The position numbers and the translations under genes were made by a program. From Octopus vulgaris (taxonomy: Eukaryota), in assembly GCA_951406725.2 (NCBI GenBank), contig OX597822.1, forward strand, positions 35,340,001-35,404,000: 64,000 bases of DNA, given 5' to 3'. Positions within the stretch are counted from its first letter, which is position 1. Every line of letters begins with the position of its first letter. Below are positions 48,557-48,923 of the stretch, in pieces. Under the pieces are notes generated by a model. The model did no database searches. It was not told where the DNA came from and saw only the letters and a list, made by a program, of their open reading frames with translations.

Positions 48557-48598
<42 letters not shown>

Positions 48599-48635
48599 GC
48601 GGGACAGATATCTGCAGCTGGCAGGCTTCTGCTAC

Positions 48636-48682
48636 TCTAGACCGATGATGGACAAAGATCCTGAAACATGCGTGTCTCTAGA
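48636..48682 (+). ncRNA. Type I hammerhead motif in a single-copy relative of the array unit
   Basis: UCUAGA-CCGAUGA-U GGA CAAAGA UCC U-GAAA-CA UGCG UG-UC|UCUAGA. Stem I extends through CUGC/GCAG, CAGGC/GCCUG, GCAGC/GCUGC and GACAGAUA/UAUUUGUC. Confidence 0.8.
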
Positions 48683-48923
48683 TGCAGGCCTGGCTGCTGG
48701 GGGTATTTGTCTCCCCTTCGTAAATATATAAGGACACAGGAAAAAAAAAATGCATCGAAGCCATCAGGAGGCGTCGATGCTTCCTAGGGCTAAACAGCGG
48801 CGGTGCAATCCCCTACTGTTACGTTAAATTGACAGTATACAACCATTCTATATATATATTTACGTACGTATGTATGTATGTATGTTTTTATGTATGTGTG
48901 TTCTTAAATATATATATATATAT

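Follow-up and report, generated by a model that had tools for sequence, protein, structure and literature searches.

A truncated retrozyme copy with a variant hammerhead-like core in Octopus vulgaris, and recurrent core states among its relatives

Known hammerhead elements

Metazoan non-LTR retrozymes, such as the 350–390-bp repeats of Mytilus (Cervera & de la Peña 2020, PMC7229834; Li et al., bioRxiv 10.64898/2026.07.22.740005), carry one type I hammerhead per ~350-nt tandem unit and occur as solo, dimer, and multimer copies, as does a clan of repeats in Octopus vulgaris. They also occur alongside Penelope-like elements (PLEs), and intact PLEs are present in this genome as well. The clan differs in that its subfamilies show C4 (or U3) and lack a G10.1-C11.1 pair, and in keeping the loop–loop bases that are mostly missing in Mytilus (PMC7229834). 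No pLTR homology was found for it in 30 GIY-YIG loci.

With the canonical type I hammerheads (Schistosoma mansoni, the newt satellite, RF00163), the clan shares a 6-bp helix I, an internal loop with a U and a UAC-type strand, a CAAAUA-like loop 2, and a short palindromic helix III for dimer cleavage. It departs from them in having U4C in many lineages and a mismatch opening helix II in most, and copies in the window analysed here go undetected by Rfam. The same single substitutions are listed among natural core variants (viroid U4C, U10.1·U11.1, and U3-A8; Perreault et al. 2011, PMC3088659), where they are rare single cases, whereas in the clan they are fixed together, high-copy, recently amplifying, and recurrent, including an uncompensated U3·G8. 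The minimal hammerheads of PLE pLTRs (Cervera & de la Peña 2014, PMC4209133) share the dimer-dependent design and PLE-style insertions; however, they have a long helix II, a short helix I, and G10.1-C11.1, and flank an RT-EN frame, whereas the clan has canonical helix lengths and no RT.

The class, the dimer design, and each single substitution are therefore already known, and it is the recurrent pattern in amplifying elements that we did not find in print. In the openly accessible literature we found no description of retrozymes from cephalopods, nor of amplifying families in which U4C or U3·G8 is fixed (Lünse et al. 2017 and the PMC7229834 supplement may bear on this); the giant-squid genome paper gives only a count of 235 Rfam hammerhead_1 matches. 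Because the usual hammerhead searches demand U4 together with pairing at 10.1-11.1, families of this kind are filtered out.

The window element and its fold

The window is a 64,000-nt stretch of contig OX597822.1 (positions 35,340,001–35,404,000). Within it, a 5′-truncated solo copy of retrozyme lineage A lies on the forward strand at 48600–48851, with a (TA)n tract (48557–48596) at its truncated end; other family copies run ~110 nt further 5′, and this upstream part of the monomer (~350–370 nt in full) is absent here. A TA/TATG microsatellite (48849–48923) separates its 3′ end from that of a tandem array of lineage B1 (48924–52465, reverse strand), so that the two stand tail to tail. The array comprises 9.9 units of 360 nt at 99% identity with one hammerhead per unit (C3 at 49133, 49492 ... 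52369; stem III ACCAUGGU). What we take to be SINE-like dispersed repeats flank the region (47990–48170, 48230–48370, and 29851–30319 of the window).

A first-pass annotation of this stretch had described a single-copy segment at 48597–48830, opposite in orientation to the array. The orientation is as described and an element does lie there, but it continues ~20 nt past that end, to ~48851, and it is far from single-copy, with 52 genome matches, of which 41 cover nearly its whole length with 91–100% identity (best 40 scored of 2,013 candidate places). Family copies often end, as the window copy does, near ACAACCATTCTAT followed by microsatellite, and among lineage A copies tandem and head-to-head inverted arrangements are common, with hammerheads spaced 368 nt apart at one locus (L013). 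The array family is likewise dispersed (334 matches, best 40 scored of 654 candidates), with 99–100% identity among the rows listed and many inverted arrays, and the arrangement of an A copy followed by an opposite B copy recurs at another locus (L027). Aligned end to end, A and B monomers score 131, against a mean of 68 (sd 9, maximum 89.5) for 100 shuffles, and they are ~63% identical around the hammerhead. The downstream motif that had been likened to one in the array is indeed present (48771–48798) and homologous to it. By sequence comparison, then, the window segment is a truncated genomic copy of a dispersed ~350–370-nt non-LTR retrozyme family homologous to the array; this identity, and the self-complementarity of stem III, had been missed.

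Pattern searches for relatives returned 1,162 matches for C4 with U·U (19 in the control) and 1,043 for C4 where 10.1 is not U (45 in the control), giving more than 2,000 C4 matches in one genome, as well as 6,287 for U4 (110 in the control), most of which are an unrelated short element. The loci fell into a clade formed by A, D, and E, the lineages B1, B2/B3, and C, and a mixed, older group called x, which by sequence makes at least six related lineages in the genome, those with more distant cores possibly being missed by such patterns. Unit lengths and monomer spacings are 352–368 nt across lineages. Tandem ~350-nt units with one type I hammerhead-like motif each are found at the family level, the window copy being a truncated solo, and the family shows truncation and inversion at the 5′ end, units in tandem, and flanking microsatellite. 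These elements are also covered in public assemblies that carry the labels of other organisms: two (X14 and X17) hold a whole B unit, with four listed differences in X17, none of them in the core, and X19 covers the A hammerhead with one difference. The four runs covered are assembled contigs, none on record as RNA, from which strand, ends, and level are not readable; in X14 and X17, records of 390 nt would suit a closed unit of 360 nt but, equally, a DNA array.

The type I hammerhead-like domain of the window element was placed at 48636–48682 (forward strand, as are all its parts) by scan, covariation, and a held-out covariance model. Stem I (UCUAGA/UCUAGA, 48636–48641 and 48677–48682) is followed by the core CCGAUGA (48642–48648), in which C3 is 48642 and C4 is 48643. 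U10.1 (48649) and U11.1 (48662) face one another as U·U at the base of stem II (GGA/UCC, 48650–48652 and 48659–48661; loop CAAAGA), and GAA (48663–48665) leads into the self-complementary stem/loop III, ACAUGCGUGU (ACA-UGCG-UGU, 48666–48675), with GAAA reading on into its ACA/UGU stem. C17 is 48676, with the cut predicted at 48676|48677. Beyond stem I, the 5′ arm of an extended stem I (48601–48635) ends in the UAC side of an internal loop (48633–48635; UAC in 29 of 30 lineage A copies), facing a bulged U at 48683, the internal-loop U, which opens the 3′ arm (48683–48713). Further downstream (48733–48798) are hairpins common to the lineages, namely a GACACA/UGUGUC helix, weakened in the window copy by private changes at 48753–48754, and then a hairpin with a GGGCUA block, which contains the downstream motif of the first-pass annotation.

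A relaxed scan of the window recovered exactly 11 motifs, the window element and ten array copies on the reverse strand, with stems, C4, and U·U as first described, while 200 dinucleotide shuffles of the window gave 0.01 relaxed and 0 strict matches per shuffle. The long extended stem I also stood: the 121-nt region that includes it folds with z = −5.2, as well as which none of 200 shuffles folded. An alternative register, in which U4 is deleted rather than replaced by C4, was rejected: stem I of both A and B pairs only in the C3-C4 register.

Compared with the RF00163 consensus, the window copy has C3, G5, A6, G8, A9, G12, A13, A14, A15.1-U16.1, and H17, and its three helices around the core, with helix I open, give the consensus type I layout. 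It departs at U4, where C stands at 48643 (as in 31 of 31 A copies picked by BLAST and 37 of 39 from a search with the core left free), and at the 10.1-11.1 pair, which is U·U here and unpaired in 13 of the 17 copies aligned below. Rfam reported no hammerhead in 48597–49300 at E up to 10, the gathering score not being reached, and none among the 150 matches listed of 221 for the window, all microsatellite noise; over the genome, RF00163 gave 6 matches among 73 scored, none from the retrozyme clan. Given this score, we have filed the window copy as a core variant rather than as a consensus member.

That the hammerhead fold has been selected, as the first-pass annotation had argued, rather than arisen by chance is supported by comparison of the copies. 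In 17 related, hand-picked copies from lineages A–E, whose counts are not independent events and carry no p-value, 94% of cells pair and 12 of 16 pairs change on both sides, with stem I paired throughout (100%; 6/6 pairs covarying), and their covariation score of 0.64, against 0.03–0.14 for slid controls, was reached by 0 of 500 shuffles. Unguided, RNAalifold on 11 longer segments returned the hammerhead with its internal loop and downstream helices, with two-sided change in 23 of the 36 pairs. A covariance model was trained on B, C, and x only, leaving out A, D, and E; it scored the window copy at 45.9 bits (E ~2e-11, a rough value) and, in the 13 loci tested that contain A, D, or E copies, recovered every one of the 14. 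Among 141 copies of lineages A–E with at least five stem I pairs and at least two stem II pairs, the internal-loop U is kept in 140 and the terminal A of loop 2 in all 141. These are the bases of the loop–loop contact in Schistosoma (PMC2632901), so that the loop 1–loop 2 tertiary bases of the consensus hammerhead are present as far as the letters tell.

Among A copies the core is also less variable than the rest. Only 3 of 341 core letters depart in the 31 BLAST-picked A copies, against ~3% elsewhere (p ~0.02), and in the core-free search one or more core positions were altered in 7 of 39 A copies. At G5, A6, G8, A9, G12-A14, A15.1-U16.1, and C17, these searches (39 A copies and the first 100 of 158 C copies) showed scattered single-copy changes only, which in A is what one would expect if the copies are dead inserts and their source elements are under constraint. 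Since the patterns used to find lineages C, D, E, and x themselves contained the core, the constancy of G5-A14 across these lineages is circular in part.

The window copy, with its one hammerhead, is probably such a dead-end insertion, and inert. Its hammerhead domain has the commonest letter of the family at each position, as a ribozyme exapted by the host at this locus might, and we regard such a role as highly improbable: the copy is ordinary (91–95% identical), one of many, and truncated, its private changes fall in the downstream helix, and most copies of such young age are intact.

Core states and their history

The first-pass annotation had read the shared C4 and U·U of the window element and the array as the mark of one conserved subfamily, a view that the relatives of both contradict. 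Lineage A has C4 and U·U (37 and, for U10.1, 36 of 39 copies from the core-free search), as does B1, but D, the sister of A, has C4 with A10.1-U11.1, and E, which holds the closest older relatives of the window element, has U4 in 98 of the 100 copies listed, with C·A or U·A and hence A11.1. Lineage C is mixed, with subfamilies of U4/C·A, C4/C·A, C4/C·U, and C4/U·U, and x is mostly C4 with A·A. The young B2/B3 relatives of the array carry the core UUGAUGA, with U3·G8, U4, and U·U in 68 of 68 matches and no compensating A8 (L173–L187), and often stand in tandem pairs (e.g., L174:1495–1540). The 10.1·11.1 states are C·A, U·A, C·U, A·U, A·A, and U·U; G10.1-C11.1 was seen as a subfamily state in none of lineages A–E and x.

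On an unrooted tree of 71 rows, built with positions 3, 4, 10.1, and 11.1 masked, position 4 changes 10 times and U·U 5 times, single-copy decay included. AU tests on 68 of these rows, leaving out three on long branches, rejected both a single clade of the 15 C4+U·U rows (p-AU 2e-53) and a single clade of the 39 C4 rows (p-AU 1e-4). U·U is thus clearly homoplastic on these alignments. Mean pairwise identity, from at most 14 copies per group, is 0.86 in E and 0.83 in the U4 part of C, compared with 0.95 in D, 0.93 in the C4 part of C, 0.99 in B1, and 0.95 in A, the last inflated because its copies were sampled by similarity to the window. The greater divergence of the U4 groups favours parallel changes of U4 to C4 and of A11.1 to U, with B2 (young and U4, its copies ~99% identical to the nearest) and x (old and C4) as exceptions. 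Based on this divergence and an unrooted tree, the direction at position 4 is likely U4 to C4, and the combination of C4 with U·U likely arose convergently, in parallel in lineages A, B, and C, rather than by inheritance.

Decay of CpG was considered as a source of U4 and rejected for both lineages concerned. In E, 98 of 100 matches listed have U4, yet 67 of 100 keep C10.1pG; in C, U4 occurs in ~23 of 56 A11.1 copies against 3 of 44 U11.1 copies, with 2 G5A changes among the 100 listed.

Inheritance of C4 and U·U by the window element and the array from a common ancestor would account for their sharing by A, B1, and part of C, and C4 taken singly could be ancestral, given that x, basal under midpoint rooting, has it and that repeated reversion is possible at a CpG (C4pG5). 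We nonetheless consider an inherited signature improbable, since the nearest relatives do not have both states (U4 with C·A or U·A in E, A-U in D, U4 with C·A in old C, and U3U4 in B2), one clade is rejected, U·U changes five times, and CpG decay does not explain the U4 of E.

Beyond convergence, one might speculate that the clan tunes its own ribozyme. Independent lineages would have passed from U4 to C4 and then from A11.1 to U, ending at C4 with U·U (one going on to U3·G8), with the changes favoured by selection, either because slower cutting preserves multimeric templates for tandem arrays or because a compensating core geometry, so far unrecognised, exists. We hold this as a tentative suggestion, on the doubtful side. 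Were it true, the clan would amount to a natural experiment, run several times over, in the evolution of the hammerhead active site, one that escapes both Rfam and consensus descriptors, and hammerhead censuses would be missing whole high-copy families. One scaffold here carries graded natural cores (U4/C·A, U4/U-A, C4/C·A, C4/C·U, C4/U·U, C4/A-U, and U3U4/U·U), which makes testable both the rescue of core mutations by tertiary contacts or dimerisation and the need for fast cleavage to spread; on the latter, B2/B3 are the most informative natural control.

Predicted cleavage and mobilisation

In each lineage the major variant of stem III is self-complementary, and its palindromes change as matched pairs (ACCAUGGU/ACCUAGGU, ACUCGAGU/ACUGCAGU/ACCCGGGU, and ACAUGCAUGU/ACACGUGU), with AU becoming UA between B1 and B2 and CG becoming GC within C. 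Computed energies give these palindromes a self-duplex at −9 to −13 kcal/mol and no hairpin alone. In five of five natural tandem pairs, the double hammerhead is computed to be ~15 kcal/mol better than two monomers and lies within 0–5 kcal/mol of the MFE, equalling it in three, while the monomer hammerhead lies 4–7 kcal/mol above. Tandem copies are therefore predicted to fold as double hammerheads, and dimer cleavage through a short helix III is a known metazoan type I design (PMC4209133 and PMC6765202). Given that a monomer on its own is predicted to be weak, failure of a 48600–48715 transcript to cleave, once put forward as refuting the ribozyme, would not be a sound refutation.

The reading we favour, with reasonable though not full confidence, is that of a retrozyme family, likely copied by PLEs, with predicted self-cleavage as double hammerheads. 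Read-through or internal transcription of tandem units would supply the RNA, stem III of two units would pair to form two active sites, and cleavage after C17 would release monomers, which may circularise; a Penelope-like RT/endonuclease would then write monomers back into TA-rich DNA. C4 and U·U would be tolerated at a reduced rate, the contact between loop 2 and internal loop 1 and the dimer pairing likely stabilising the fold. U4C and U10.1·U11.1 are each found in functional natural hammerheads, a viroid hammerhead with U4C being compatible with infectivity, and among mismatches at 10.1·11.1, U·U is tolerated best (PMC3088659). On this modelling, the variant core of the window likely works like a hammerhead, and slow but real cleavage of dimers seems a good bet.

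The same literature also holds points against cutting. U4C "considerably decreases activity in vitro" and the N7 of G10.1 is a metal ligand, so that with both U4 and G10.1 altered here known contacts are removed; moreover, 8 of 9 predicted Xenopus retrozyme dimers are reported without cleavage in vitro (bioRxiv 10.64898/2026.07.22.740005). The young B2 spread with U3·G8, its C3-G8 pair broken, so amplification may not need efficient cleavage. The hammerhead shape could then be kept mainly as a structural signal, for RT capture or RNA stability; the C4 and U3 lineages would then have little or no catalysis left, and arrays would arise from uncut multimeric RNA. Drift of core positions 3, 4, 10.1, and 11.1 at the subfamily level, the recent amplification of a U3·G8 subfamily with tandem pairs, and reports of little or no in vitro activity for motifs of the PLE type and for those of Xenopus (PMC4209133; bioRxiv 10.64898/2026.07.22.740005) would all suit such a signal. 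Set against this are the other catalytic bases, with scattered single-copy changes only (39 A copies and the first 100 of 158 C copies), a position 4 that stays pyrimidine, and the conservation of both the dimer palindrome and the tertiary bases, and we judge a mainly structural role unlikely.

The PLE part of the favoured reading, mobilisation by PLE proteins, is likely by analogy with insertion structure alone, the marks of truncation and inversion matching those of PLE insertions (bioRxiv 2021.04.23.441226). The genome contains many RT-GIY-YIG elements with intact 781-aa frames (148 matches from 150 scored). No homology was found between the monomers and the 30 GIY-YIG loci examined of these 148, the model trained on B, C, and x returned nothing in three PLE loci (L191, L248, and L249), and no RT-GIY-YIG frame stood beside A–E copies among frames of at least 200 aa in loci up to L158 (first 120 residues, by eye). 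One abundant RT-GIY-YIG Penelope-like element (L248:1245–3587, L249, and L250; 781 aa) has an upstream ORF and a CxxC linker, and near its 3′ end we noted by eye a minimal-hammerhead-like stretch with a U3-A8 core.

In lineages A, D, and E, the hammerhead is immediately preceded on its 5′ side by a cassette of ~1.6 kb (L109:1719–3335, L110, L111, L093, L156, and L161; also L013, L022, L024, and L025) that encodes a LINE ORF1-like protein with a CCHC knuckle. Its Atlas look-alikes are zf-CCHC/ZCCHC3-like at 0.90–0.93, and Pfam gave nothing significant on two cassette frames. The 3′ junction is near-fixed, and duplications of 14–17 nt that differ at the 5′ junction were seen in the four A copies with both ends. 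By sequence, the cassette looks like an element that has repeatedly targeted the retrozyme and was then carried along, with copies truncated or inverted inside it.

Other hammerhead-like families occur in this genome. A separate and very abundant ~130-nt element, usually in inverted pairs within (TA)n (L101–L108 and L142:1549–1680), has, on a reading by eye, a hammerhead-like fold with U4, U10.1·U11.1, a longer stem III, and a GUA site, and at L142 a head-to-head fusion joins it to a D copy. Further families unrelated to the clan, with a ACUUCGAAGU stem III or with RF00163 matches, lie at L121, L122, L158, L123, and L061–L066.
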